A stretch of 32,000 bases of DNA from Elusimicrobia bacterium GWD2_63_28. Its GTDB lineage: Bacteria > Elusimicrobiota > Elusimicrobia > Elusimicrobiales > UBA9959. This document shows positions 1,647 through 29,031 of the stretch, one piece after another (the first letter of the stretch is position 1; the number at the start of each line of letters is the position of its first letter). The DNA lies in the NCBI GenBank assembly GCA_001799895.1, contig MGUI01000052.1:87029-119028 (forward strand), read 5' to 3'. The notes below the pieces were generated by a model, which ran no database searches, was not told the origin of the DNA, and saw only the letters and a program-made list of their open reading frames with translations. The position numbers and the translations under genes were made by a program.

Positions 1647-2123
1647 ATGGCCGAAGACCTGGCGGTGACCGGGGCGACCAAGGAAGAAAAATACCGCAGC
1701 CTGCTGGCCCAGGTAAAAGGGCTGACGGCGGGCGAGAGCGACGCCGTGGCCAACATGGCCAATATCTGCGCCGCCATCAAGTACGGCCTGGGCTATTTCT
1801 GGGCTGGCTTTTACCTGGTGAAGGGCGGCGAGCTGGTGCTCGGGCCTTTCCAGGGGCCGGTGGCCTGCACCCGCATCCGCAAGGGGCGCGGCGTCTGCGG
1901 CCAATGCTGGGAAAAGGGCGAGGCGCTCATCGTGGACGACGTATCGCGCTTCCCCGGGCATATAGCCTGCAGTTCGCGGTCCAAGTCCGAAATAGTGCTG
2001 CCGGTCAGGAACCGGGAGGGGCAAATTGTCGGTGTGCTGGATGTGGATCACGACGCCGTCGGGGCCTTCGACCAGACAGACAAGAGATGTCTGGAAGAAA
2101 TAGCCGCCCTCGCCGGGCTGTAG
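1647..2123 (+). CDS. msrC: GAF-domain free methionine-(R)-sulfoxide reductase (fRMsr)
   Basis: 'FYLVKGGELVLGPFQGPVACTRIRKGRGVCGQCWEKGEALIVDDVSRFPGHIACSSRSKSEIVLPV' matches the fRMsr signature including the three expected Cys positions (ACTRI, GVCG, HIACS). Confidence 0.85.
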   Translation: MAEDLAVTGATKEEKYRSLLAQVKGLTAGESDAVANMANICAAIKYGLGYFWAGFYLVKGGELVLGPFQGPVACTRIRKGRGVCGQCWEKGEALIVDDVSRFPGHIACSSRSKSEIVLPVRNREGQIVGVLDVDHDAVGAFDQTDKRCLEEIAALAGL

Positions 2124-2146
2124 CCGGCCCCGGCGGGAAATGCAAC

Positions 2147-2182
2147 AACTGAACCCCGCGCTCTGGCGGGGTTCAGTTTTTT
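2147..2182 (+). terminator. Rho-independent terminator of trpR-trpB-msrC operon
   Basis: AACTGAACCCCGC / GCGGGGTTCAGTT stem followed by a run of Ts. Confidence 0.9.
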
Positions 2183-2200
2183 GTCCGGCTGATGTTCCTG

Positions 2201-2761
2201 TTAAGGAACGAAGGCGAACTTTATGGTTATGACGCCCTTGCTCCACTCGCGGGCGTTCCTGCAGGCGAACTCCGCCACTTCGCGCAGGTCGGCGTAGAGC
2301 TCCTGGTTTGCCAGGCTGATCCTGGAAGAGTTGCGGACTACTATGAGGATCCTGTTGTTGTGGTGTATGCCCGGCAGGTCGCCGATGAAGTCTATCATCG
2401 CGTCCCAGTTCTCCGGCACGCCGGGCAGGCGCAGCGTCCTGGTGGTGTAGTCCAGCAGGGCCGGCTTGGTGGTCATCTTCGCCCCGTCCAGGCTGAACAC
2501 GGCGTAGCCGTTGGTCTGCGCGTAGTTGGACAGGAAGTCGGCGTAGACCGGGCTCAGGTCGAGCACGTCCGAGGCGAGCGACTTTTCGGCCTGGTACTTC
2601 TGAAGGTCGATGAGGGGCTCCGGTACGGGAACCTCCGCCACCTCGATTTTAAGGCCGGCTGTTTGGGCCAGCAGGGCGCTCAGGGCGCCGTTAGCCTGGC
2701 CTGCATGCGCCGCGCAGGACAGGAACAGGGAGATAGCGATAACGTTCGATACGAGTTTCAT
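2201..2761 (-). CDS. Secreted barstar-like (barnase inhibitor fold) protein
   Basis: 186 aa with signal peptide 'MKLVSNVIAISLFLSCAAHA'; C-terminal 'YAVFSLDGAKMTTKPALLDYTTRTLRLPGVPENWDAMIDFIGDL...RILIVVRNS' resembles the barstar pattern (L.LP....NWDA..D.L.DL). Confidence 0.55.
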   Translation of the reverse strand: MKLVSNVIAISLFLSCAAHAGQANGALSALLAQTAGLKIEVAEVPVPEPLIDLQKYQAEKSLASDVLDLSPVYADFLSNYAQTNGYAVFSLDGAKMTTKPALLDYTTRTLRLPGVPENWDAMIDFIGDLPGIHHNNRILIVVRNSSRISLANQELYADLREVAEFACRNAREWSKGVITIKFAFVP

Positions 2762-3020
2762 AATAGCAGTAGCCTCCGAATATAAGTTTCTATATTCCGA
2801 TACTTTGTGCTAAGTTCCGTTTTTAGGTGGGGGAAACTTAACGCGCCTTCCGATATTATCCTGGAAGGACATCGCCGTAGCCGGTAGTTTTGGTGATTTA
2901 TGGATACCGGGCAGCTTGTAAGATACGGTAAACGCTGAAGTCTTACGTGAAGTATTACTATTATATCAAATCAGGTCCGCGGCCGTGAATTGTTATAATT
3001 TACGAGGGCGAGGAGGAGTC

Positions 3021-3527
3021 ATGAAAAAAATAGCGGTCTTCATAGCTTTCCAGGGTTTCCGCGACGAAGAGTACGTTGAGCCGAAGAAGGCGCTCGAAGC
3101 CGCCGGCCACCAGGTAGTCACGGTCTCCACCGCCAGGGGCGAGGCCCGCGGCAAGTTCCGCGTGACCGCGCAGGTGGACAAGACGGTGGACGAGATAGAT
3201 CCCGCCGATTACGACGCGCTGGCGCTGGTGGGCGGTCCGGGCGCGCTGGAGCATTTGGATAACCCCAAGGTGCACGCGCTCTTTAAAAAAGCTACGGAGC
3301 TGGGCAAGGTGATAGGCGCCATCTGCATCTCGCCGGTGGTCCTGGCCCACGCCGGCCTGCTGAAGGGCAAAACCGTTACCTGCTGGCCGGACGGCGCCGA
3401 AGAAGTGCGCAAGGGCGGCGGCAACTATACAGGCTCGGACCTGGAGATAGACGGCAGGCTGATAACCGCCAGCGGCCCCGTTCCGGCGAAGAAATACGGC
3501 CAGGCCATAGCCGAGGCTTTGAAATAA
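3021..3527 (+). CDS. DJ-1/PfpI (ThiJ) family protein
   Basis: 'KKIAVFIAFQGFRDEEYVEPKKALEAAGHQVVTVS...DYDALALVGGPGALEHL...GKVIGAICISPVVLAHAGLLKGKTVTCWP'; ATG at 3021 preceded by GAGGAGG Shine-Dalgarno (the track start at 2985 is less likely). Confidence 0.92.
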   Translation: MKKIAVFIAFQGFRDEEYVEPKKALEAAGHQVVTVSTARGEARGKFRVTAQVDKTVDEIDPADYDALALVGGPGALEHLDNPKVHALFKKATELGKVIGAICISPVVLAHAGLLKGKTVTCWPDGAEEVRKGGGNYTGSDLEIDGRLITASGPVPAKKYGQAIAEALK

Positions 3528-3540
3528 AAGGAGAATTAAA

Positions 3541-3957
3541 ATGAAAATACTGACAGCTTTATTAATGACGGTCATGCTGGCGGGCTCTGCCGCCGCGGCG
3601 GAGAAGAAGTCAGCGGAAAAGGACGCCTGGAAAAAGCGGGTGTTCACCGCCGAGGAGCTGCAGAAGTACAACGGCAGGGACGGCCAGCCGGTCTACGCGG
3701 CCGTGGACGGCATCGTTTACGACCTGAGCAAGTCCAAGTACTGGAAGACCGGCACGCATATGAAGCAGCACGAAGCCGGCGCCGACCTTAGCGCCGATAT
3801 CCACGAGAAAGCCCCGAAGGGCATACACAAGGACGGCAAGATCCTCAACAAGATGCCCAAGGTGGGCGTGACCGAAGAGTATGCGAAGAAAAAGCCGGAA
3901 GCTTCCGCGGTGAAGGAAAAGGCCGGCGCTCCGAAAGAAAATAAGGTCAAGAAATAG
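3541..3957 (+). CDS. Exported cytochrome b5-like heme/steroid-binding domain protein
   Basis: Signal peptide, then 'RVFTAEELQKYNGRDGQPVYAAVDGIVYDLSKSKYWKTGTHMKQHEAGADLSADIHEKAPKG'; AAGGAG Shine-Dalgarno. Confidence 0.85.
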   Translation: MKILTALLMTVMLAGSAAAAEKKSAEKDAWKKRVFTAEELQKYNGRDGQPVYAAVDGIVYDLSKSKYWKTGTHMKQHEAGADLSADIHEKAPKGIHKDGKILNKMPKVGVTEEYAKKKPEASAVKEKAGAPKENKVKK

Positions 3958-3971
3958 GCGGAAGGCTAATT

Positions 3972-4003
3972 AAAAAACCCGGGCGCGTCGGCCCGGGTTT
4001 TTT
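3972..4003. terminator. Bidirectional intrinsic terminator between convergent operons
   Basis: AAAAAACCCGGGC-GCGTCG-GCCCGGGTTTTTT, with an A-run upstream and a T-run downstream. Confidence 0.92.
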
Positions 4004-4016
4004 ATTGCCGCCGGCC

Positions 4017-5861
4017 TCAGTCCGGCTGCTGCGCCAGCGGGGCTTTTATTTTTTCAGATGCCTCGGCCGCGCGGGCGCGCACATATTGGGAGCGGTGCTG
4101 CTCCAGACCCTTCAGCCGCTGCAGCGCCGTAGCCGCCTCTGCGCCCATGCTGCCCAGGGCGCGGGCGGCGCACATTACCACGAAATCGTCGGTGTCTTCC
4201 AAGGCGGTCTTTAGCACAGGCAGGCCGGTGGAACCCAGCCGGGCCAGGGCGGCCGCGGCTTCCACCGAAAGCGGGTATTCCCCGCGGCGGAGAGTTTCTT
4301 GCAGCGGCTTAACCGCCGCCGGACCTATGTTTGCCAGCGCGCCGGCCGCCGCCCGCGCCAGGTGCTTGTCGCCGGCGAGCTTGCCGATCAGGGCGGGCAC
4401 GGCCTCTCCGGCTTCCGGCCCCATTATGGCCAGGGCCTCCAGGGCGGCGTACGGCATCCTGGAGCGCTTGGAGTCCAGAGCGGCGATAAGTTCCGGGAGG
4501 GCACCCTTCTCCGCCGGGCCTATGCTGGCCAGCAGGCCGCGGAAATCGTCCCCGTAGATCTCGCTGCTTCGGCCCTGCGCGCGGACCAGCACGGGTACGG
4601 CTGACCTGGCGGCGGGGCCTATCGCGCCTAAGGCGTAAGCGGCGTTATCCCTGACCTTCACCTCTTCGTCCTCCAGCGCCGTGACGAGCTGCGGGAGATA
4701 CTCCACCGCCGCGGGCCCCAGCTTTATCAGCCCCCAGGAGGCAAAGATCCGGTCGTTAGCTTCCGGGCTCTTCAGGGCCGCGGCCAATTCCGCGGCTAAG
4801 CCTCGCGTATCGGGGGCTATCGCCGCCAGCGCGCCGGCCGCAAAGGCCCGCGCCGAAGGGTCTTTATCTTCCAGCGCCTTCTCAAGCGCCGGCACCGCTT
4901 CCGCGGCCGGCAGCCCCCGGCGGGACAGGGCCCCGGCGGCGTCGGTGCGGGTCCTGAGGTCGGGGTCCGAAAGCAGCCTGGCCAGCTCCGCTACGATACC
5001 GGGCGTGGCCGGGGACAGTTTTGCCAGCGTGATGGCGGCCGCGCCGCGCACGTCCGGGTCCGCGTCGCCCAGCGCTACCGTCAGGGCCTGCGCCGCCCCG
5101 GCCGGGGCTCTTTCGGTGAAGGTGAAATAAAGCGCCGCGCAGCGGCGGAGATAATTGTCCGGCGAGGACAGCAGTTTGAATATTTCCGGGTTCACTCTTT
5201 CAGGGGGAAACTTGCCCAGGGCGGACGTGACCCTGGCGCAAAGCTGGTAGGGCGCGCCGCTGAACAGCCCGAGGAGCGCGGGCACCGGGTCGGCCTTTTC
5301 CATCCGCAGCTCGCCCAACGCCCAGATGGCGTTCTCCCGCACCTTCTCGTCCTTGTCCTTGAGCAGGTTCAGTATTTTCTGCTCGTCCTTTTCTTTGTGG
5401 TAATGGGTTTTCCCGATCACGTACAGGGCCCGGCCCCTGGCGCCCGCGCTTTCGGAAGCCAGCTCTTTTATAAGGTCGTCGTACGGGTTTATGTCGGCCA
5501 GCGCTTCGGCGGCCGCCAGGCCGAAAGCCTTGTTCTTGTCGCCCATGGCCTCAATAAGTTTTTTCACGCCGCTCGCGGGGAAGGGCTCCATGTGGCCCAG
5601 CGCCCAGGCCGTCACCTCCCTGACTTCCCAGTCCGGGTCTTTAAGGGCCTCTATGAGCGGGGGCACGGCCGCCTCCGGGCCAGCGGCCTTAAGCTTGTAC
5701 ATGGCCGCCAGCTGCGCGTCCCCGTCCCCGGTCCGCGCGGCTGCCTTAAGTTCCTCCGCGGCGGCGGCGGGGTTCAGCTGTTCGAGCACGGCAGTTCCGG
5801 CCGCCGAAGCCGGGAGGCAGGCGGAAAGAAGCCAGGAGAAAAAAAACAGGGCAGAGTTCAT
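4017..5861 (-). CDS. Exported HEAT-repeat protein
   Basis: Signal peptide plus many HEAT-like units ('EVREVTAWALGHM', 'KVRENAIWALGEL', 'DVRGAAAITLAKL', 'KVRDNAAYALGAIG'). Confidence 0.85.
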   Translation of the reverse strand: MNSALFFFSWLLSACLPASAAGTAVLEQLNPAAAAEELKAAARTGDGDAQLAAMYKLKAAGPEAAVPPLIEALKDPDWEVREVTAWALGHMEPFPASGVKKLIEAMGDKNKAFGLAAAEALADINPYDDLIKELASESAGARGRALYVIGKTHYHKEKDEQKILNLLKDKDEKVRENAIWALGELRMEKADPVPALLGLFSGAPYQLCARVTSALGKFPPERVNPEIFKLLSSPDNYLRRCAALYFTFTERAPAGAAQALTVALGDADPDVRGAAAITLAKLSPATPGIVAELARLLSDPDLRTRTDAAGALSRRGLPAAEAVPALEKALEDKDPSARAFAAGALAAIAPDTRGLAAELAAALKSPEANDRIFASWGLIKLGPAAVEYLPQLVTALEDEEVKVRDNAAYALGAIGPAARSAVPVLVRAQGRSSEIYGDDFRGLLASIGPAEKGALPELIAALDSKRSRMPYAALEALAIMGPEAGEAVPALIGKLAGDKHLARAAAGALANIGPAAVKPLQETLRRGEYPLSVEAAAALARLGSTGLPVLKTALEDTDDFVVMCAARALGSMGAEAATALQRLKGLEQHRSQYVRARAAEASEKIKAPLAQQPD

Positions 5862-14973: not shown

Positions 14974-17490
14974 ATGAGCACGAACGAGATCAAAAAACTG
15001 TTCGCGGAGCGCATCCCCGTCTTCGACGGGGCGATGGGCACCTACCTGCCGGCCTTCGGCCTCAAAGAATCGGATTTCGCCGGCCACGACGGGCTAAACG
15101 AGATGCTGTCCCTCTCCCGCCCCGACGTGGTTACCAAGGTCCACGAAGACTATCTCGCCGCCGGCGCGGACTTCATCGAGACCAACACCTTCGGCGCCAA
15201 CGCGGCCGTGCTGGCCGAATACGGCCTGCAGGCCCGGGTGCGCGAGTTCAACATCGCCTCCGCGCGCCTGGCCAGGGCCGCCGCGGAAAAATATTCCGGC
15301 GACGGCAGGAAGCGCTACGTGGCCGGCTCCGTCGGCCCCACCAACAAGGCCCTGTTCGTCACCGGCGGCCTCTCCTTCGACGAACTGCGCAGCGTCTACC
15401 TGGAGCAGCTGCTGGGCCTCATCGAAGGCGGCGCGGACCTGCTGCTGCTCGAGACCGCGCACGACGTGCTGAATCTGAAGGCGGGGCTGGCCGCGGCGCG
15501 CCTGGCCTTCCAGAAAGCCGGCCGGGACCTGCCCGTGATAGTTTCCGCCACCATGGACGAGCGCAACAAGATGCTGTCCGGCCACGACGCGGAGGCCTTC
15601 TTCGCCGCCGTCGAGCATTTCCCGCTCGCGGCCATCGGCTTCAACTGCTCTACCGGGCCCGAGGGGCTGGGGTTGCGCCTCGAGCGCCTGGCCGCCCGCG
15701 CCCAGTACCCCGTCTTCGCCATGCCCAACGCCGGCCTGCCCGACGAGAACGGCCTCTACCTGCAGACCCCGGAGACCTTCTCCGCCGTGATGGCGGGCTA
15801 CGCTAAAAGGGGGCTGCTCAACGCCGCCGGCGGCTGCTGCGGCACCAACCCGGACCACATAAAGGCCCTCGCCGAAGCCGTAAAAGGCGTAAAGCCGCGC
15901 GTCCCGAACGCCGTCGCCCCCTGGGTGGTGTCCGGCGTGGAGGCCCTGTTCTTCGACGAGATAGAGCCGCCCGCCATGGTGGGCGAGCGCAATAATTCCA
16001 TCGGCTCCAAGAAGTTCCGCGACATGGTGGCCGCCGGGGACTGGGACGGGGCCGTGGCCCTGGCCAAGGCCCAGGCCGGGGCGGGAGCCCATATCCTGGA
16101 CGTCTGCCTGGCCAACCCCGAGCGCAACGAACTGGCCGACGTTAAGACCCTTATCCCCAAGCTGGCCCGCGCGGTGCGCCTGCCCGTCATGACCGACACC
16201 ACCGACACCGCCGTGATGGAAGAGGTGCTCAAAGCCGTGCCCGGCAAGGCGCTGCTGAATTCCGTCAACTTCGAGTTCGGCCTCGAAAAGCCGCGCGCCG
16301 CCGCCGAGCTGGTGAAAACCTACGGCGCCAAGCTGGTGTTCGGCTGCATCGACGAGGACAAGGCGCACGGCCTGCCGCTCGACGCGGAGCGCAAGGTGGC
16401 CATAGCCCGCCGCGCCTACGCCTTCCTCACCGAAGAATGCGGCCTGCAGGCCGGCGACATCGTCTTCGATACGCTGGTGTTCCCGGTGGCCGTCGGCGGC
16501 GAGCACGCCAAAACCGCCCACGAGACCATAAAGGCCATAGAGGCTATAAAAGTGGAATTCCCCGGAGTGAAGACCGTGCTCGGCGTCAGCAATGTCTCTT
16601 TCGGCCTGCCGCCCGCCTCCCGCGAGGTACTCAACTCCGTCTTCCTGCACCACGCCGTGAAGGCCGGGCTGGACCTGGCCATAGTCAACATAGAGAAACT
16701 CAAGCGCTACGCCGGGATCTCCCCAGAGGAGAAGGCGCTGGCCGAGGACCTGATCTTCGCGCGCAAGCCGGACGCGGCGCAGCTCTTCGCCGCGCGCTAT
16801 CGCGACGCCAAGAAAGGCCCGGCCGCCCCGGCTGCGCAGGACGCGCCGCCGGCGGAGAAGCTGCGCCTGGCCGTGCTCAACGGCACGCGCAACGGCATAC
16901 CGGAAGCCGTGGCCGCCCTGCTTCAGACGGAGAACCCGCTCGATATTATCAACGGCCCCGTCATGCAGGCCATGGCCGAGGTGGGCAAACAGTTCTCCTG
17001 CGGCGATTTGATAGTGACCGAGGTGCTGCAGAGCGCCGAGGCGGCCAAGGCCGCCGTCACCGCGCTGGAACCGGCGCTGAAGGCGCAGAAAGCCCCCAAG
17101 CGCGGCCGCGTGCTGCTGGCCACCGTGAAGGGCGACGTGCACGACATCGGCAAGAACCTGGTGGGCATCATCTTCGAGAGCAACGGCTTCGAGGTGGAAG
17201 ACCTCGGCGTGAAAGTGGCGCCGGAGGATATAGCCGCCGCGGCCGCCAAGTCGCGCCCCGACTTCATCGGCCTGTCCGGCCTGCTGGTGCGCTCCTGTGA
17301 GCAGATGACCATCACCGCCCGCGAGCTGGCCCGCGCCGGCGTGAACTGCCCGCTGCTGGTGGGCGGCGCCGCCCTGACGCCCAAATTCACCGAAGCCAAC
17401 ATAGTCCCGAATTACGCCGGGCCGGTCTTCTACGCCAAGGACGCGATGGAGGGCCTCAACTACGTGCTGAAGCTCGGGGTCGCCAAATAG
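14974..17490 (+). CDS. metH: Cobalamin-dependent methionine synthase: Hcy, pterin, cap and B12 modules, lacking the C-terminal activation domain
   Basis: 'FDGAMGTYL', 'ETNTFGAN', 'FNCSTGPEG', 'GGCCGTNP', 'VGERNNSIGSKKF', B12 motif 'VKGDVHDIGKNLVG'; ends directly after the B12 domain. Confidence 0.94.
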   Translation: MSTNEIKKLFAERIPVFDGAMGTYLPAFGLKESDFAGHDGLNEMLSLSRPDVVTKVHEDYLAAGADFIETNTFGANAAVLAEYGLQARVREFNIASARLARAAAEKYSGDGRKRYVAGSVGPTNKALFVTGGLSFDELRSVYLEQLLGLIEGGADLLLLETAHDVLNLKAGLAAARLAFQKAGRDLPVIVSATMDERNKMLSGHDAEAFFAAVEHFPLAAIGFNCSTGPEGLGLRLERLAARAQYPVFAMPNAGLPDENGLYLQTPETFSAVMAGYAKRGLLNAAGGCCGTNPDHIKALAEAVKGVKPRVPNAVAPWVVSGVEALFFDEIEPPAMVGERNNSIGSKKFRDMVAAGDWDGAVALAKAQAGAGAHILDVCLANPERNELADVKTLIPKLARAVRLPVMTDTTDTAVMEEVLKAVPGKALLNSVNFEFGLEKPRAAAELVKTYGAKLVFGCIDEDKAHGLPLDAERKVAIARRAYAFLTEECGLQAGDIVFDTLVFPVAVGGEHAKTAHETIKAIEAIKVEFPGVKTVLGVSNVSFGLPPASREVLNSVFLHHAVKAGLDLAIVNIEKLKRYAGISPEEKALAEDLIFARKPDAAQLFAARYRDAKKGPAAPAAQDAPPAEKLRLAVLNGTRNGIPEAVAALLQTENPLDIINGPVMQAMAEVGKQFSCGDLIVTEVLQSAEAAKAAVTALEPALKAQKAPKRGRVLLATVKGDVHDIGKNLVGIIFESNGFEVEDLGVKVAPEDIAAAAAKSRPDFIGLSGLLVRSCEQMTITARELARAGVNCPLLVGGAALTPKFTEANIVPNYAGPVFYAKDAMEGLNYVLKLGVAK

Positions 17491-18275
17491 TGGCGGCCCG
17501 CTTCCCGGCCGATAACCCGGTCCCCGCGGACCTGGAGCGGCATTTCGTCGAGCAGCCGCTGCCCGAGCTGTTCGCCAACATGGACGAGGACCTGTTCAAC
17601 CTGCGCTTTCTCGGCCTGAAGAAAGCGCAGGAGGATAAGCGCCGCGAGGCCGCCGCGCAGCTGGCCGCCCTTAAAGAGGAAGTGCTGACGAAAGGGCTGA
17701 TAAAGGCGCGCGGCGTCTACCGCTTCTTCCCGGCCGCTTCCGACGGCGACAAGATCCGAGTTTACGGCGGGGACGGGGCCGAAGCGGCCGTTCTGAACTT
17801 CCCGCGCCAGGCCGCCGGCGACCGCCTCTGCCTGGCCGACTTCACCGCCCCGGCGGCTGACGCTAAAAAAGATCATATCGCCCTGCTGGTAGTCACCTGC
17901 GGCGAGGGCGTGCTGGCCCTCGCCCGCCGAGAGCGCGAGGCCGGCAACTATGTGCGGTCCTACCTGGTAGAGGCGCTGGCCCTGACGCTGGCCGAGGCCT
18001 TCGCCGACGTGCTGCATTACCGCATCCGGCGGGAGTGGGGTATAGCGGAGGAGAACCCGGTCATCCCGCTGCTGCGCAGCAAGTACCGCGGCAAGCGCTA
18101 CTCCTTCGGCTACCCGGTCTGCCCGGACCTGGCCAACCAGGCTGTTCTATTCGACCTGCTCAAGCCCGAGCCCGACGCCGGCATCAAGCTGACCGACGGC
18201 TATATGATGGACCCTGAAGCCTCGGTCTCGGCCATAGTCTTCCACACCCCCGCCGCCGTCTACTTCGGCATCTAG
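17490..18275 (+). CDS. Separate MetH reactivation (AdoMet-binding) domain protein
   Basis: Start GTG overlaps the metH TAG (TAGTG). 'AEAFADVLHYRIRREWG...RGKRYSFGYPVCPDLANQAVLFDLLKPE..GIKLTDGYMMDPEASVSAIVFHTPAAVYFG' matches the MetH activation domain. Confidence 0.88.
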   Translation: MAARFPADNPVPADLERHFVEQPLPELFANMDEDLFNLRFLGLKKAQEDKRREAAAQLAALKEEVLTKGLIKARGVYRFFPAASDGDKIRVYGGDGAEAAVLNFPRQAAGDRLCLADFTAPAADAKKDHIALLVVTCGEGVLALARREREAGNYVRSYLVEALALTLAEAFADVLHYRIRREWGIAEENPVIPLLRSKYRGKRYSFGYPVCPDLANQAVLFDLLKPEPDAGIKLTDGYMMDPEASVSAIVFHTPAAVYFGI

Positions 18276-18316
18276 CCTGTCGAGGTTGAACCTCCACGAG
18301 GTTCAGCCTCGACAGG
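18276..18316. repeat. 41-nt near-perfect inverted repeat abutting the stop codon
   Basis: CCTGTCGAGGTTGAACCTC-CAC-GAGGTTCAGCCTCGACAGG: 19-bp arms with a single T:G mismatch, 3-nt loop, no immediate T-run. Confidence 0.9.
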
Positions 18317-18342
18317 GAGTTGACATGGGACTTTTTTGGGTC

Positions 18343-18423
18343 TTGACAGCGGGGATTGGTCTGCTATACTATGAATGGGTCCGCGGCCCCTCTCAGTGGG
18401 TTTCTCGCGGGCCCTTTCTTTTT
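18343..18423 (+). ncRNA. Candidate mini-RNA unit, copy 1: sigma70 promoter plus ~47-nt hairpin/terminator RNA
   Basis: TTGACA (18343-18348), 16 nt, TATACT (18365-18370), 6 nt, then GGGTCCGCG...CGCGGGCCC-TTTCTTTTT (18377-18423). Confidence 0.7.
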
Positions 18424-18509
18424 GGATGGAAACGGGGAGGGAGGGAAGCGTTCCGCGGCCTGATTCCGGGGCCCGACCGGGCATGCTCCGGCCGTGCGCG
18501 GCGCACCCC

Positions 18510-18590
18510 TTGACAAGTCAAGACTATCTGCTATAATATATTTGGGTCCGCGGCCCCTCTCAGTGGGTTTCTCGCGGACCCTTTCTTTTT
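18510..18590 (+). ncRNA. Candidate mini-RNA unit, copy 2: sigma70 promoter plus ~47-nt hairpin/terminator RNA
   Basis: TTGACA (18510-18515), 16 nt, TATAAT (18532-18537), 6 nt, then GGGTCCGCG...CGCGGACCC-TTTCTTTTT (18544-18590); 46/47 identical to copy 1 over the predicted RNA. Confidence 0.72.
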
Positions 18591-18593
18591 GTC

Positions 18594-19553
18594 CTATTTC
18601 TTGTATTCAAAACCTTTGGCGTCTATGTAGAAGGAGCGGCCCCCCAGGCTTACCCTGGCTATGCCGCCGCGGAAGCCAGAGGCCTGCGAATACTTGAAAT
18701 CTATCACGGCCTTGCCGGTCTTGTCTATGTAGCCCCAGCCGCCGTGGAAATCCTTGAGCGCCGGCGCCAGGCCGCCCTCGAAGGAGGCGCACATGGCGAA
18801 GAGGGCCGGTATGGCCTGTTTGCCCTCTGAGTCTATGTAGCCGCAGCGGCCTTCCCCCTCCAGCGCCTGCGCGTGGGCCAGGCCCTCGCTGTAGGGCCCG
18901 ATGGCGACGAAGTCGCGCGCCTTGAAAGCCAGCGTCGAGCGGTTGATGAAGCCGTACCTGTCGCCCAGCCTGGCCGCCGCGAAGCCCCCGCTGAAAGGGA
19001 AGGCTTCGGCGTAGACCGGCGGGGTGGCTTCTTTGCCCGAGAGGTCTATGAAGCCGTACTTGCCGTTCACTTTCACCCGGGCCAGGCCCTCGCTCGGCGG
19101 GTAGATCTCTTCGTAGATGCCGCTGCGGAACTCGCGCGCGTCCCTGAGCAGCAGCCCCCAGCGCCCGCCCTTCTTGGCCGGCGCGGCGCCACCTGAGAAC
19201 TGCAGCAGCTCCTCGTATTCAAAAGGCACGGCCGTTTTTCCGGCCTTGTCCACGCAGCCCCAGAGCCCGCGCGATTTTACCGGCGCGCAGCCCTCGCTGA
19301 AAGAGCCGGCCGACTGGTAACGGGGGGGAATAGCCTTGCCGCCCTTCTTGTCTATGAAACCGTATTTTCCTCCGGAGCGCACCAGCGCCAGCCCCTCGCT
19401 GAAGGGCTCGGCGTAGTCGTAGCGCGCGGGTATGCGCAGTTTGCCGCCGGGCGCGGCGTAGCCCCACTTGCCGCCGGAGTTGAAAGGGATGAGTTCCTGC
19501 GCGGAGGCTCCGGCGCAGCAGGCCAGCAGCAGGGCAAAAGCTATTTTCTTCAT
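18594..19553 (-). CDS. Exported WG-repeat protein
   Basis: Signal peptide and about 8 units of the type 'GKWGYAAPGGKLRIPARYDYAEPFSEGLALVR'. Confidence 0.93.
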   Translation of the reverse strand: MKKIAFALLLACCAGASAQELIPFNSGGKWGYAAPGGKLRIPARYDYAEPFSEGLALVRSGGKYGFIDKKGGKAIPPRYQSAGSFSEGCAPVKSRGLWGCVDKAGKTAVPFEYEELLQFSGGAAPAKKGGRWGLLLRDAREFRSGIYEEIYPPSEGLARVKVNGKYGFIDLSGKEATPPVYAEAFPFSGGFAAARLGDRYGFINRSTLAFKARDFVAIGPYSEGLAHAQALEGEGRCGYIDSEGKQAIPALFAMCASFEGGLAPALKDFHGGWGYIDKTGKAVIDFKYSQASGFRGGIARVSLGGRSFYIDAKGFEYKK

Positions 19554-19638
19554 GGTAAAAATGATACCAATTTTTCCGGCGGCCGCCGCGCGCGCGAAAC
19601 TTCAGCCGGGGTTTCCGGGTTATTTGTATAATGGGCTT

Positions 19639-20121
19639 ATGAAAAAGAGAATCGCGGTTTACCCGGGCAGCTTCGACCCGGTCACCTTCGGCCACCTGGA
19701 CATAATAGACCGGGCGTCTAAAATTTTCGACCACCTCGTAGTCAGCGTGTTCGTGCACAGCGCCAAGAAACACCTGTTCTCGCTGGACGAGCGCGTGGCC
19801 ATGCTGAAGACCGCCCTGAAGGGCAAACGCAACGTGTCGGTGGACTGCTTCGAGGGGCTGCTGGTGGAGTTTGTGAAGAAAAAGAAGACCAGCGTGGTGG
19901 TGAGGGGCCTGCGCGCCATCTCCGACCTGGAGTATGAGTTCCAGATAGCGGCCACCAACCGCACCCTCTACCCCGGCATAGAGACCGTCTTCTTCATGCC
20001 GCGCCAGCGCTATACCTACCTGTCCTCGAGCATAGTGCGCGACATCGCCCATTTTAACGGCGACGTCTCCAAGCTGGTGCCGCCGCACGTGGCCAAGGCC
20101 ATAGCGAAACTGAAGCGCTAG
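19639..20121 (+). CDS. coaD: Phosphopantetheine adenylyltransferase
   Basis: 'KKRIAVYPGSFDPVTFGHLDIIDRASKIFDHLVVSV', 'RGLRAISDLEYEFQIAATNRTLYPGIETVFFMPRQRYTYLSSSIVRDIA'; true ATG at 19639, not 19468. Confidence 0.96.
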   Translation: MKKRIAVYPGSFDPVTFGHLDIIDRASKIFDHLVVSVFVHSAKKHLFSLDERVAMLKTALKGKRNVSVDCFEGLLVEFVKKKKTSVVVRGLRAISDLEYEFQIAATNRTLYPGIETVFFMPRQRYTYLSSSIVRDIAHFNGDVSKLVPPHVAKAIAKLKR

Positions 20122-21086: not shown

Positions 21087-21998
21087 ATGGGAAACGTCCC
21101 GTTTGCGGTTATCCTTTTCGCCGTTCTGACGCTTCCGGCCTCCGGGGGCGAGGGGGCGGTTTTACCCGCGGCTTCCGTGGGCGGCGGAATCGTGTCCGAA
21201 CAGGACATTTCGGACTGGCAGGCGGCGCAGGGGTGCTATGGCGAGGACGCCATTACCTCGCGCAAGGCCGGTTTCATGCGCATGTTCGAGGCCACCATAC
21301 TCGAAGATCTGCTGGTGCACCAGGCCACGCGGCCCATAAACGCGGAGGATTACGCCAAAGAAGTGGCGCGCATAGACAGGGAAACCCGCGCGCCGGACAT
21401 CCTGGGCTGCATTAAGAAATATTTCGGCGAGGGCACGGCCCGCTACGAAAGGGTCTTCATAAGGCCCATCCTGGCGCAGCGCTTCCTAAGGGAATACGTG
21501 AAAACGGACCCGGCGGTGCAGGCCAAAGCTTACGCGCAGCGCGAAGGCGCGCTGAAGGACATAGCCAAAAAGAAGGCCTTCAAGGCCATAGGGGAGGAGC
21601 GCGGCATCGCCTATTCCACCTCGGCCTACGCGGTGGAAGAGGACACCACCGCACCACAGGCCCTGGAGCCTTGGAAGCGCTGGTCGCCTTTCGAGGCCGC
21701 TTTCATCAACGAGCACCTGAAGGGCCTGAAACCGGGCGAGGTGAAGCCGCAGCCCATAGAGGACGAGGCTAACATAAAATTTGTGCGGCTGATAAAGATA
21801 GAAGGCAAAAAATACTATTTCGAGACGCTGACCATCGCCAAACTCACCACCGAAGACTACCTCAGGCGCGTCACCAAACTGCCTTGCAGGATTAACGACA
21901 GGGAATTGCACGACTGGGTGGCCCCCATAAAAGGCAACCCGCTGATAGCCCCGGCGGACCTGGATGGTCCGGGCGGAGCCAGTGGGGCCGGCAAGTAG
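21087..21998 (+). CDS. Exported protein resembling a SurA-type N-terminal chaperone domain
   Basis: Signal peptide, 'VGGGIVSEQDISDWQAAQGCYG...RMFEATILEDLLVHQATRPINAEDYAKEVARID' resembles SurA_N-like helices; 13 nt upstream of the giant gene. Confidence 0.4.
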   Translation: MGNVPFAVILFAVLTLPASGGEGAVLPAASVGGGIVSEQDISDWQAAQGCYGEDAITSRKAGFMRMFEATILEDLLVHQATRPINAEDYAKEVARIDRETRAPDILGCIKKYFGEGTARYERVFIRPILAQRFLREYVKTDPAVQAKAYAQREGALKDIAKKKAFKAIGEERGIAYSTSAYAVEEDTTAPQALEPWKRWSPFEAAFINEHLKGLKPGEVKPQPIEDEANIKFVRLIKIEGKKYYFETLTIAKLTTEDYLRRVTKLPCRINDRELHDWVAPIKGNPLIAPADLDGPGGASGAGK

Positions 21999-22011
21999 GA
22001 AAATAAAAACG

Positions 22012-29031
<7,020 letters not shown>

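Follow-up and report, generated by a model that had tools for sequence, protein, structure and literature searches.

A duplicated promoter-hairpin-terminator unit as a candidate small RNA family of the Elusimicrobiales

In a 32,000-nucleotide stretch of contig MGUI01000052.1 from Elusimicrobia bacterium GWD2_63_28 (positions 87,029 to 119,028; hereafter the window), the gap between two convergent genes holds two homologous units on the + strand, in each of which a near-consensus promoter, a hairpin and a terminator together take up about 80 bp. We give an even chance to the reading that these units are paralogous sibling small RNA (sRNA) genes of a lineage-specific Elusimicrobiales family whose products act in trans, and the locus stands out as a candidate sRNA family for its unusually clean comparative support, namely an invariant promoter, a covarying stem and paralogue-specific loops. 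Judged from these comparisons, the family is new and of a known kind, its unusual traits being minimal size and the fusion of promoter, RNA body and terminator. The Elusimicrobiota are mostly uncultivated groundwater and gut lineages, and to our knowledge almost nothing is known of RNA-based regulation in them.

Promoter, hairpin and terminator of the two units

The intergenic gap measures 318 nt and separates the gene for the methionine synthase (metH) activation domain from a convergent gene for a WG_beta_rep protein (the WG gene). Each unit is made up of TTGACA, a 16-nt spacer, TGnTATA(C/A)T, 6 nt, and then a 38-nt hairpin with its U-tract; the coordinates are collected in Table 1. A repeat search finds the pair as a 65-nt direct repeat of 92% identity with a start-to-start distance of 167 nt, and the 34-nt RNA core occurs exactly twice in the window, against an expectation of 0. 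The promoter spacers of units 1 and 2 are dissimilar, and the 85 nt that separate the units (18425-18509) show no likeness either. No + strand gene follows the units in the window, and none of the other convergent junctions in its 32 kb carries such a unit.

A consensus scan returned 8 promoter-like sites in 3 kb where 0.4 were expected; the promoters of units 1 and 2 match the consensus at 11 and at all of its 12 positions, respectively, both with the TG of an extended -10, and the pattern TTGACA-N13-TGnTATAMT occurs in the 32 kb solely at the two units (0 expected). In 22 non-redundant units the elements CTTGACA and CTGCTAyAmTAT (CTGCTATA-TAT) are unchanged, as they are in three divergent subfamilies, and the 13 nt that separate them cannot be aligned from unit to unit, that is, the promoter spacers are scrambled. 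The string TCTGCTATAMTAT is restricted to units in all fetched loci, and a G stands 7 nt after the -10 in every unit. Hence all the sequence signs of a sigma-70-type promoter with extended -10 are present (-35, spacer, TGn, -10 and a purine start about 7 nt downstream). The near-consensus form of these promoters suggests that sigma-70 signals of the E. coli type hold in Elusimicrobiota, which is useful for heterologous tests.

The promoters come in two flavours. Type 1, represented by unit 1, carries GGACTTTTTTGGGYC directly upstream of the -35, and the T-tract (in the window GGACTTTTTTGGG) is kept in all type-1 units of the fetched homologous loci, which are designated by L-numbers (L017, L019, L020, L021, L023, L027, L029, L032 and L033); it is a candidate UP-like element. 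Type 2, represented by unit 2, has a palindromic -35: the perfect 5-2-5 palindrome TTGACAAGTCAA encloses the hexamer, and TTGACNNGTCAA was confined to units among the 40 loci fetched up to that search. In L035 and L037 the palindrome sits about 21 nt upstream of the -35 instead, a displacement which suggests the binding site of a dimeric regulator rather than mere -35 context, so that TTGACAAGTCAA may be regarded as a candidate operator controlling just one of the two paralogues. With a T-tract at unit 1 and an operator-like palindrome at unit 2, the copies are probably regulated differently, and the two promoter types offer a testable case of sub-functionalised sibling sRNAs.

The RNA bodies begin six nt past the -10 and read GGGTCCGCGGCCCCTCTCAGTGGGTTTCTCGCGG(G/A)CCC followed by TTTCTTTTT. 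They differ at position 35 alone, where G18411 in unit 1 corresponds to A18578 in unit 2, thereby turning a U4-G35 pair into a U4-A35 pair. Both bodies fold into a 9-bp outer stem, an unpaired or wobble-paired G10, a CCC/GGG inner helix, an 8-nt loop, a 3' bulge of 4-5 nt and a U tail, with folding energies of -24.0 kcal/mol (unit 1) and -24.6 kcal/mol (unit 2), a z score of -4.6 and none of 200 shuffles as stable. In the outer stem all 120 alignment cells hold standard pairs, as do 180 of 180 in a larger set, and six of the nine pairs show double compensatory changes, for instance from G-C to A-U, U-A or C-G. None of 500 shuffles matched the observed covariation values, sliding the pairing partners abolished covariation and pairing alike, and the RNAalifold consensus is the same fold. 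A single A-C mismatch occurs in the stem of L041; G-U pairs fill only 1 of 180 cells in the two scored helices, outside which the invariant G10-U25 wobble lies.

The hairpins also display what is expected of an intrinsic terminator: the terminator scan matches the 3' part of each, the match is followed by TTTCTTTTT, and the GC-rich hairpin is conserved. Polarity on the + strand follows from the U4-G35 wobble, the G10-U25 pair, the U-tracts and the promoters, all of which fit it. The - strand of unit 1 folds 7 kcal/mol worse than its + strand, and the - strand of unit 2 reaches -22.2 kcal/mol. The terminator scan found no canonical - strand terminator between the WG gene and the unit, and the hairpin is followed by no U-tract on the - strand.

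In all these respects a preceding sequence-only reading of the window was borne out. It had described promoters of the form TTGACA-16-TATA(C/A)T placed 6 nt from the hairpin, near-identical RNA bodies with one stem-preserving difference, and a 9-bp outer stem with CCC/GGG helix and U-tail; promoter scan, comparison and folding reproduced each of them. Its statement that conservation is limited to the promoter elements and the RNA body, the spacers and the DNA between the units having diverged, likewise stands.

Table 1. Coordinates of the two units and of adjoining features in the window
Feature	Positions	Strand	Evidence or remark
Unit 1	18343..18424	+	
T-tract GGACTTTTTTGGG, just upstream of unit 1 -35	18328..18340	+	unique in window
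Promoter of unit 1, TTGACA-16-TATACT	18343..18370	+	consensus scan
-35 hexamer TTGACA, unit 1	18343..18348	+	invariant in 22/22 aligned units and in divergent subfamilies
Extended -10 TGcTATACT, unit 1	18362..18370	+	promoter scan
RNA body, unit 1	18377..18423	+	
Hairpin, unit 1, 8-nt loop CUCUCAGU, bulge UUUCU	18377..18414	+	fold and covariation; covariance-model score 76.7 bits
Terminator-scan match, unit 1	18398..18414	+	followed by TTTCTTTTT
U-tract UUUCUUUUU, unit 1	18415..18423	+	terminator scan; kept in all units
Unit 2	18510..18591	+	
Palindrome TTGACAAGTCAA enclosing unit 2 -35	18510..18521	+	perfect 5-2-5; unique in window
Promoter of unit 2, TTGACA-16-TATAAT	18510..18537	+	consensus scan
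Extended -10 TGcTATAAT, unit 2	18529..18537	+	12/12 consensus with TG
RNA body, unit 2	18544..18590	+	
Hairpin, unit 2, same as unit 1 save A35	18544..18581	+	covariance-model score 77.9 bits
Terminator-scan match, unit 2	18565..18581	+	followed by TTTCTTTTT
U-tract, unit 2	18582..18590	+	terminator scan; ends 3 nt before WG stop codon
Direct repeat, first copy	18360..18424		repeat search
Direct repeat, second copy	18527..18591		repeat search
Upstream neighbour, stand-alone methionine synthase activation domain (Met_synt_B12)	17490..18275	+	Pfam E = 6.9e-49; context
Long hairpin, 19-nt arms, 3-nt loop, right after the stop codon of the upstream neighbour	18276..18316	+	inverted repeat; outside the conserved unit
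Convergent neighbour, secreted WG_beta_rep protein, 319 aa	18594..19553	-	Pfam E = 2.6e-75

Relatives in the Elusimicrobiales

Genome and metagenome scans together with synteny-guided retrieval brought about 25 homologous units to light in metagenome-assembled genomes (MAGs) of Elusimicrobiales, at least a dozen genomes being involved. A scan with the apical 20-mer of one genome per species (185,579 species genomes) yielded seven loci, six of them labelled Elusimicrobia or MAGs and one binned as Gallionellaceae, and a metagenome scan with a degenerate 22-mer yielded eleven further ones. The Gallionellaceae-binned locus (L020; DMCN01000032.1, labelled Gallionellaceae UBA12482) is a 9.7-kb contig with the Elusimicrobia order metH-unit-WG and 73-89% protein identity to the window, and it is probably mis-binned. 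The loci are syntenic, with a + strand gene followed by one or two units, the convergent WG gene and a coaD-like gene, and WG orthologues adjoin the unit in nearly all of them. Each genome holds one or two copies at a single locus, in constant orientation and always with the promoter; a contig of 848 kb contains the adjacent twin and nothing more, and a covariance model of the family (R1), which is usable for annotation, detected nothing beyond the known copies in the 219 kb of DNA that had been fetched. Twin units, the arrangement to be looked for in tandem siblings, are seen in the window and in L017, L019, L021, L024, L026, L027, L029 and L033. One syntenic locus per genome is the signature of a gene and not of a dispersed repeat.

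The bias inherent in retrieval by RNA sequence was escaped by fetching the neighbourhoods of WG orthologues at 49-63% identity. A diverged unit stood at the expected place and in the expected orientation in L034, L035, L037 and L041, with R1 scores of 30-48 bits; no unit was found in L036 and L038, whose WG orthologues show 49-55% identity, and the family is accordingly limited to part of the Elusimicrobiales. Two additional loci, L039 and L042, end inside the WG gene and are uninformative on its downstream side.

What these relatives reveal about the hairpin is that its apex is conserved in a manner different from its stem. The G10, the CCCC and the GGG are unchanged in any member, including L034, L035, L037 and L041, which were found without an RNA-sequence query. 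In type A, the main family, the loop CUCUCAGU and the bulge UUUCU are identical across species in which the promoter spacers are scrambled and the flanking coding DNA is 70-85% identical. Type B, the second paralogue, has the loop CUUUCAGU and the bulge UUA, conserved across five species; unit 1 of L027 pairs the loop CUAUUAGU with the bulge UUUCU; the L034/L035/L037 type has the loop AUAUUAAC with AUUCU or AUCCU, and L041 the loop UUAUAAAC with UGU. For the stem it is thus the structure that is constrained, and for loop and bulge it is the sequence, which stays fixed inside a lineage and is re-set between lineages. Comparison across species shows purifying selection on the anatomy of the unit, on the loop and on the bulge.

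A second, unrelated GC hairpin with a U-tract follows 7-13 nt after the first tail in most relatives, as a + strand terminator only, so that the RNA of these relatives could be about 47 nt long, about 75-90 nt, or both. In the window species no second hairpin follows either unit. The ultra-short product of about 47 nt put forward in the sequence-only reading thus stands as a prediction for the window species and is less certain for most relatives, and the ~47-nt form may be specific to the window species. If that form is true, it would be among the shortest primary bacterial sRNAs and an example of a terminator hairpin serving as the entire functional RNA.

The spacing of the twin also varies. 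In L023 the units lie 2.4 kb apart (1690-4155) and are separated by a TPR-like gene and a gene for a 399-aa S1-domain protein, the order being metH activation domain and unit 1, which faces the S1-domain gene, and then the TPR-like gene and unit 2, which faces the WG gene; the L016 group carries only the junction of TPR-like gene and WG gene. This arrangement shows the twin of the window to be a derived or collapsed state, in which two paralogues, each associated with a junction, have come to lie next to each other.

None of the known RNA families accounts for the units. Rfam 15 (4227 covariance models) gave no gathering-level match in the whole window and nothing over the units at E<=10. On two relatives with a second hairpin all scores stayed below threshold (suhB/mmgR 24 bits against 41, Atu_C8 27.2 against 50, anti-hemB 21 against 49.5, CopA 16.6 against 60, GadY 15.7 against 45, ctRNA_p42d 14.2 against 50), and inspection of two alignments, to suhB/mmgR and to ncS54, showed that it was mainly the second terminator hairpin, a generic feature, that matched; these sub-threshold matches are generic two-hairpin sRNA shapes. 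ARAGORN finds no tRNA or tmRNA. A small protein gene was rejected on the grounds that other units lack the ATG at 18375 and that no open reading frame (ORF) is conserved; the 62-aa ORF across unit 1 (18325-18513) that is called in some assemblies spans non-conserved DNA. Nothing was found in favour of a phage or mobile origin, two scans of viral contigs having returned one chance match, inside coding DNA and with neither hairpin nor promoter. Literature searches on the sequences, on Elusimicrobia sRNAs and on WG repeats found nothing relevant.

The comparison with Rfam, which the sequence-only reading had called for, hence left its proposal of stand-alone units forming a candidate new sRNA family strengthened, with invariant promoters and a covarying stem to be added on the same side. 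A promoter-less dispersed repeat, which it had named beforehand as fatal to that proposal, did not turn up, and its judgement that attenuation of a gene is unlikely agrees with the finding that no locus has a same-strand gene downstream. The regulatory or decoy role that it suggested for the RNA is conjectural.

Proposed sibling RNA genes and rival readings

If the units are sibling sRNA genes, transcription would start at the first G of each hairpin (G18377 and G18544), and the 9-bp GC-rich outer stem together with UUUCUUUUU would end the transcript after about 45-47 nt, the hairpin presumably doubling as RNA body and intrinsic terminator. Such an RNA should be stable, since its 5' end would lie inside a GC stem, and a high output can be argued from the near-consensus promoter and the backup terminators of the relatives, second + strand terminators being what one expects where a strong promoter fires toward a convergent gene. 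The functional surface would be the apical part, namely the invariant G-CCCC/GGG helix, the 8-nt loop and the U-rich bulge, and a lineage-specific, locally frozen loop and bulge on an invariant GCCCC/GGG helix indicate a specific partner. Action in trans might take the form of base pairing that begins at the loop and extends into the C-run, or of binding by a protein that recognises the hairpin. For pairing, the complements would be ...GAGAGGGG, ...AUAUGGGG and ...UAUAAGGGG, whose G-rich, Shine-Dalgarno (SD)-like ending ...AGGGG is reminiscent of ribosome-binding regions, and a true target site would be expected to vary in step with the loop: ACUGAGAGGGG would go with the main family, GUUAAUAUGGGG with the L034 type and GUUUAUAAGGGG with the L041 type.

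There is ample precedent for such an arrangement. PrrF1/PrrF2 of Pseudomonas are one tandem sibling sRNA pair. Others are alpha-r15/AbcR1-AbcR2 (Smr15C1/C2) of the Rhizobiales, in which each tandem sibling has its own promoter and terminator (PMC3346310), and NmsRA/NmsRB of Neisseria, siblings with anti-SD loops (PMC5362039). The Elusimicrobia units share with all three the placement of two homologous sRNA genes head to tail in one intergenic region, with separate promoters and Rho-independent terminators; they also share with sibling sRNAs a microsynteny kept across related species and differing promoter-proximal sequences which suggest differential regulation, and their C/U-rich apical sequence is reminiscent of the anti-SD loops. 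Sibling sRNAs, on the other hand, measure 70-150 nt and bear one or more seed domains ahead of a separate terminator, with expression, Hfq dependence and targets established by experiment, whereas the transcript predicted here is a single 38-nt hairpin with a tail, has most of its C-run paired and is known from sequence alone; the units have no sequence or covariance-model similarity to these sRNAs.

A second comparison concerns the sRNAs that mask G-rich ribosome-binding sites by C-rich motifs, such as RsaE/RoxS of Firmicutes and RepG of Helicobacter. Here too an invariant CCCC run adjoins or lies within an apical loop and has a G-rich, SD-like complement. The C-rich motifs of RsaE/RoxS and RepG are, however, unpaired and present in several copies, as opposed to the units, in which GGG pairs with three of the four Cs; nor are the few ribosome-binding sites that were looked at in the clade G-rich.

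Several points weigh against reading the units as sibling sRNA genes acting in trans. Its support is purely sequence-based, with all members coming from uncultivated MAGs. The transcript would be a terminator-like hairpin with no obvious single-stranded seed, three of the four conserved Cs being base-paired. The seed of a trans-acting sRNA is normally its most conserved part, and variation of the loop between subfamilies as strong as that seen here (CUCUCAGU, AUAUUAAC, UUAUAAAC) is unusual for one. The 32-kb window offered no convincing complementary site, either with the complement of the apical 15-mer or by RNAduplex of the apical 22-mer against all 30-nt windows, a search which returned the units themselves and GC-rich background, and inspection of the translation-initiation regions of the WG and coaD genes showed no complementarity. 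The near-absence of G-U pairs (1/180) also fits a hairpin that forms on both strands, and the units always occupy convergent gene junctions, at which a plain terminator role is plausible. Finally, the main-family members were retrieved with patterns that require the apical sequence, so that part of the type-A invariance comes from retrieval; the contrast between a frozen apex and scrambled spacers in the same units, however, cannot be a product of the search pattern.

The convergent placement is the starting point of a rival explanation that we hold to be rather unlikely, namely that the hairpin RNA acts in cis, being perfectly complementary to the 3' end or 3' untranslated region (UTR) of the mRNA of the WG gene, or of another convergent gene, and altering the stability of that mRNA. 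Contact between the two complementary hairpins would begin at their loops and spread into a duplex, followed by processing, for example by RNase III, as in GadY/gadX or in plasmid countertranscripts. Every unit does converge on an opposite-strand gene, and does so in three different upstream contexts; the tail of unit 2 lies 3 nt from the WG stop codon in the window, any overlap depending on the 3' end of the WG mRNA, which would run antisense to unit 2. Overlap is written into the coding sequence in L034 (4128-4199), where the WG ORF reads 24 extra codons through the antisense of the whole unit, and in L041 (620-664), where the WG stop codon falls inside the hairpin and no earlier stop precedes the unit. 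WG gene and unit are not separated by a canonical - strand terminator, and the - strand of unit 2 also folds stably. Size and shape are likewise those of a typical countertranscript: single-hairpin cis-antisense RNAs include RNAII of pMV158 (about 48 nt), CopA, ctRNA_p42d, RNA-OUT of IS10 and GadY, which lies opposite the gadX 3' UTR (RF00489, RF00042, RF00122). With these the units have in common a length of about 50 nt, one extended hairpin with an internal bulge, a loop of 7-8 nt, a U tail, a strong constitutive-looking promoter and a location opposite the end of another gene. What speaks against action in cis is that complementarity of this kind needs no sequence conservation, and yet loop and bulge are constant across species and between paralogue types, beyond what action in cis would require. 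Moreover, the partner gene is not constant, for unit 1 of L023 faces the S1-domain gene 2.4 kb from WG and another gene stands between unit and WG in L035, so that WG is not an obligatory partner; in the window unit 1 lies about 170 nt beyond the WG stop codon, and the WG orthologues of L036 and L038 have no unit. Unlike plasmid and insertion-sequence countertranscripts, the units are chromosomal and lineage-wide, and the Rfam models of ctRNA, CopA and GadY fall far below threshold (14-17 bits against gathering scores of 45-60).

Two further explanations each appear improbable to us. According to the first, the unit is a transcription-level device whose hairpin serves primarily to end transcripts of the upstream operon (metH or TPR gene), and perhaps those of the convergent gene too, the RNA being incidental and the self-terminating promoter acting locally, whether through polymerase traffic and collision against read-through or through insulation. 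Every unit follows the 3' end of a gene on its own strand and points toward a convergent one, several loci have no other canonical terminator for the upstream gene, the pairs of the stem are nearly all Watson-Crick, as expected of a hairpin in transcripts of both strands, and the double + strand terminators show the importance of stopping + strand transcription. In addition, the GC-rich stem followed by 8 U in 9 nt, the position at an operon's 3' end between convergent genes and the covarying stem are all found in intrinsic terminators, bidirectional ones included. A plain terminator, however, needs neither an invariant consensus promoter exactly 6 nt upstream nor a fixed sequence in apical helix, loop and bulge; bidirectional terminators differ further in that the units have no U-tract on the other strand and are duplicated together with their promoter, and the other convergent junctions of the window do without such a unit.

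The second explanation, to which we attach the same low likelihood, regards the unit as a new minimal transcription module in which a consensus promoter is fused to its own terminator; either the abundant free hairpin titrates a hairpin- or terminator-binding factor, or what matters is the act of self-terminating transcription as such. In a variant of this, a promoter-armed terminator, head-on polymerase traffic would end the transcript of the convergent gene, which itself has no U-tract; we know of no precedent for it.

Two last explanations fit poorly. The idea of a conditional attenuator, in which a factor bound to the apical hairpin relieves termination and the strong promoter then reads antisense through WG and silences it, draws on the resemblance of strong promoter, immediate terminator and sequence-conserved hairpin to protein-controlled leaders and on the conserved orientation toward WG, and is nonetheless very improbable, for a transcript that begins where the terminator stem begins has no upstream sequence for an alternative antiterminator fold, the next gene is convergent in every locus (which disposes of an ordinary attenuator or riboswitch leader as well), the second unrelated terminator of most relatives argues for the prevention of read-through, and read-through from unit 1 would run into unit 2. 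Scarcely credible is an untranscribed DNA repeat, a repetitive extragenic palindromic (REP/BIME) or miniature inverted-repeat transposable element (MITE)-like element or a protein-binding palindrome that resembles promoter and terminator by chance, since the GC-rich palindrome between convergent genes, a typical REP site, and the variable long palindromes adjoining it are outweighed by one or two copies per genome at one syntenic locus in the same orientation, by the lack of extra covariance-model matches in the 219 kb, by a -35, TG and -10 invariant in all subfamilies with exact spacing and distance from the hairpin, and by a wobble pair that fits a + strand RNA only.

Neighbouring sequences and minor observations

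Long, near-perfect palindromes, mostly unrelated in sequence, accompany the units in the window (18276-18316), in L017 (about 2830-2915), in L023 (about 4215-4290, - strand) and in L035 (6024-6083, - strand). In the window, L017 and L023 they sit between the stop codon of the metH activation-domain gene and unit 1, and in L035 the palindrome lies upstream of the unit at the contig end; those of L017 and L035 share the ending GGGGACG...CGTCCCC. One possibility is that hairpins have been inserted variably here, perhaps as MITE-like elements or as replacements for a terminator. Within the DNA that separates the units of the window, GAAGCGTTCCGCGGCC (18445-18460) is 81% like the start of the RNA body and may be what is left of a third copy that has decayed, or of a second terminator since lost.

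The methionine synthase of the window is encoded in two parts (14974-18275), a protein of 838 aa and, apart from it, the activation domain of 261 aa, with a stop/start overlap at 17490; the distant relatives L034 and L037 have a single fused methionine synthase of 1120-1128 aa. We also considered a link with B12 or methionine genes, given that the upstream gene is metH in two contexts, its place being taken in the third (L016, 801-3673) by two genes for B12-binding radical SAM proteins; the presence of B12-dependent enzymes upstream in all three may be a coincidence, no riboswitch or shared motif having been found.

Beyond the WG gene, a 289-aa - strand ORF (19219-20088) has no Pfam match and overlaps a + strand gene that the source assembly annotates at about 19644-20121, and is probably spurious; the + strand gene is a coaD-like cytidylyltransferase (MKKRIAVYPGSFDPVT) with TATAAT just upstream. 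Further downstream the window encodes a glycine-rich protein of 2355 aa (21964-29031) with Kelch, fn3, beta-helix and FGE-sulfatase domains, and the next protein on the source contig, about 8,460-8,480 aa long, has no Pfam match on record.

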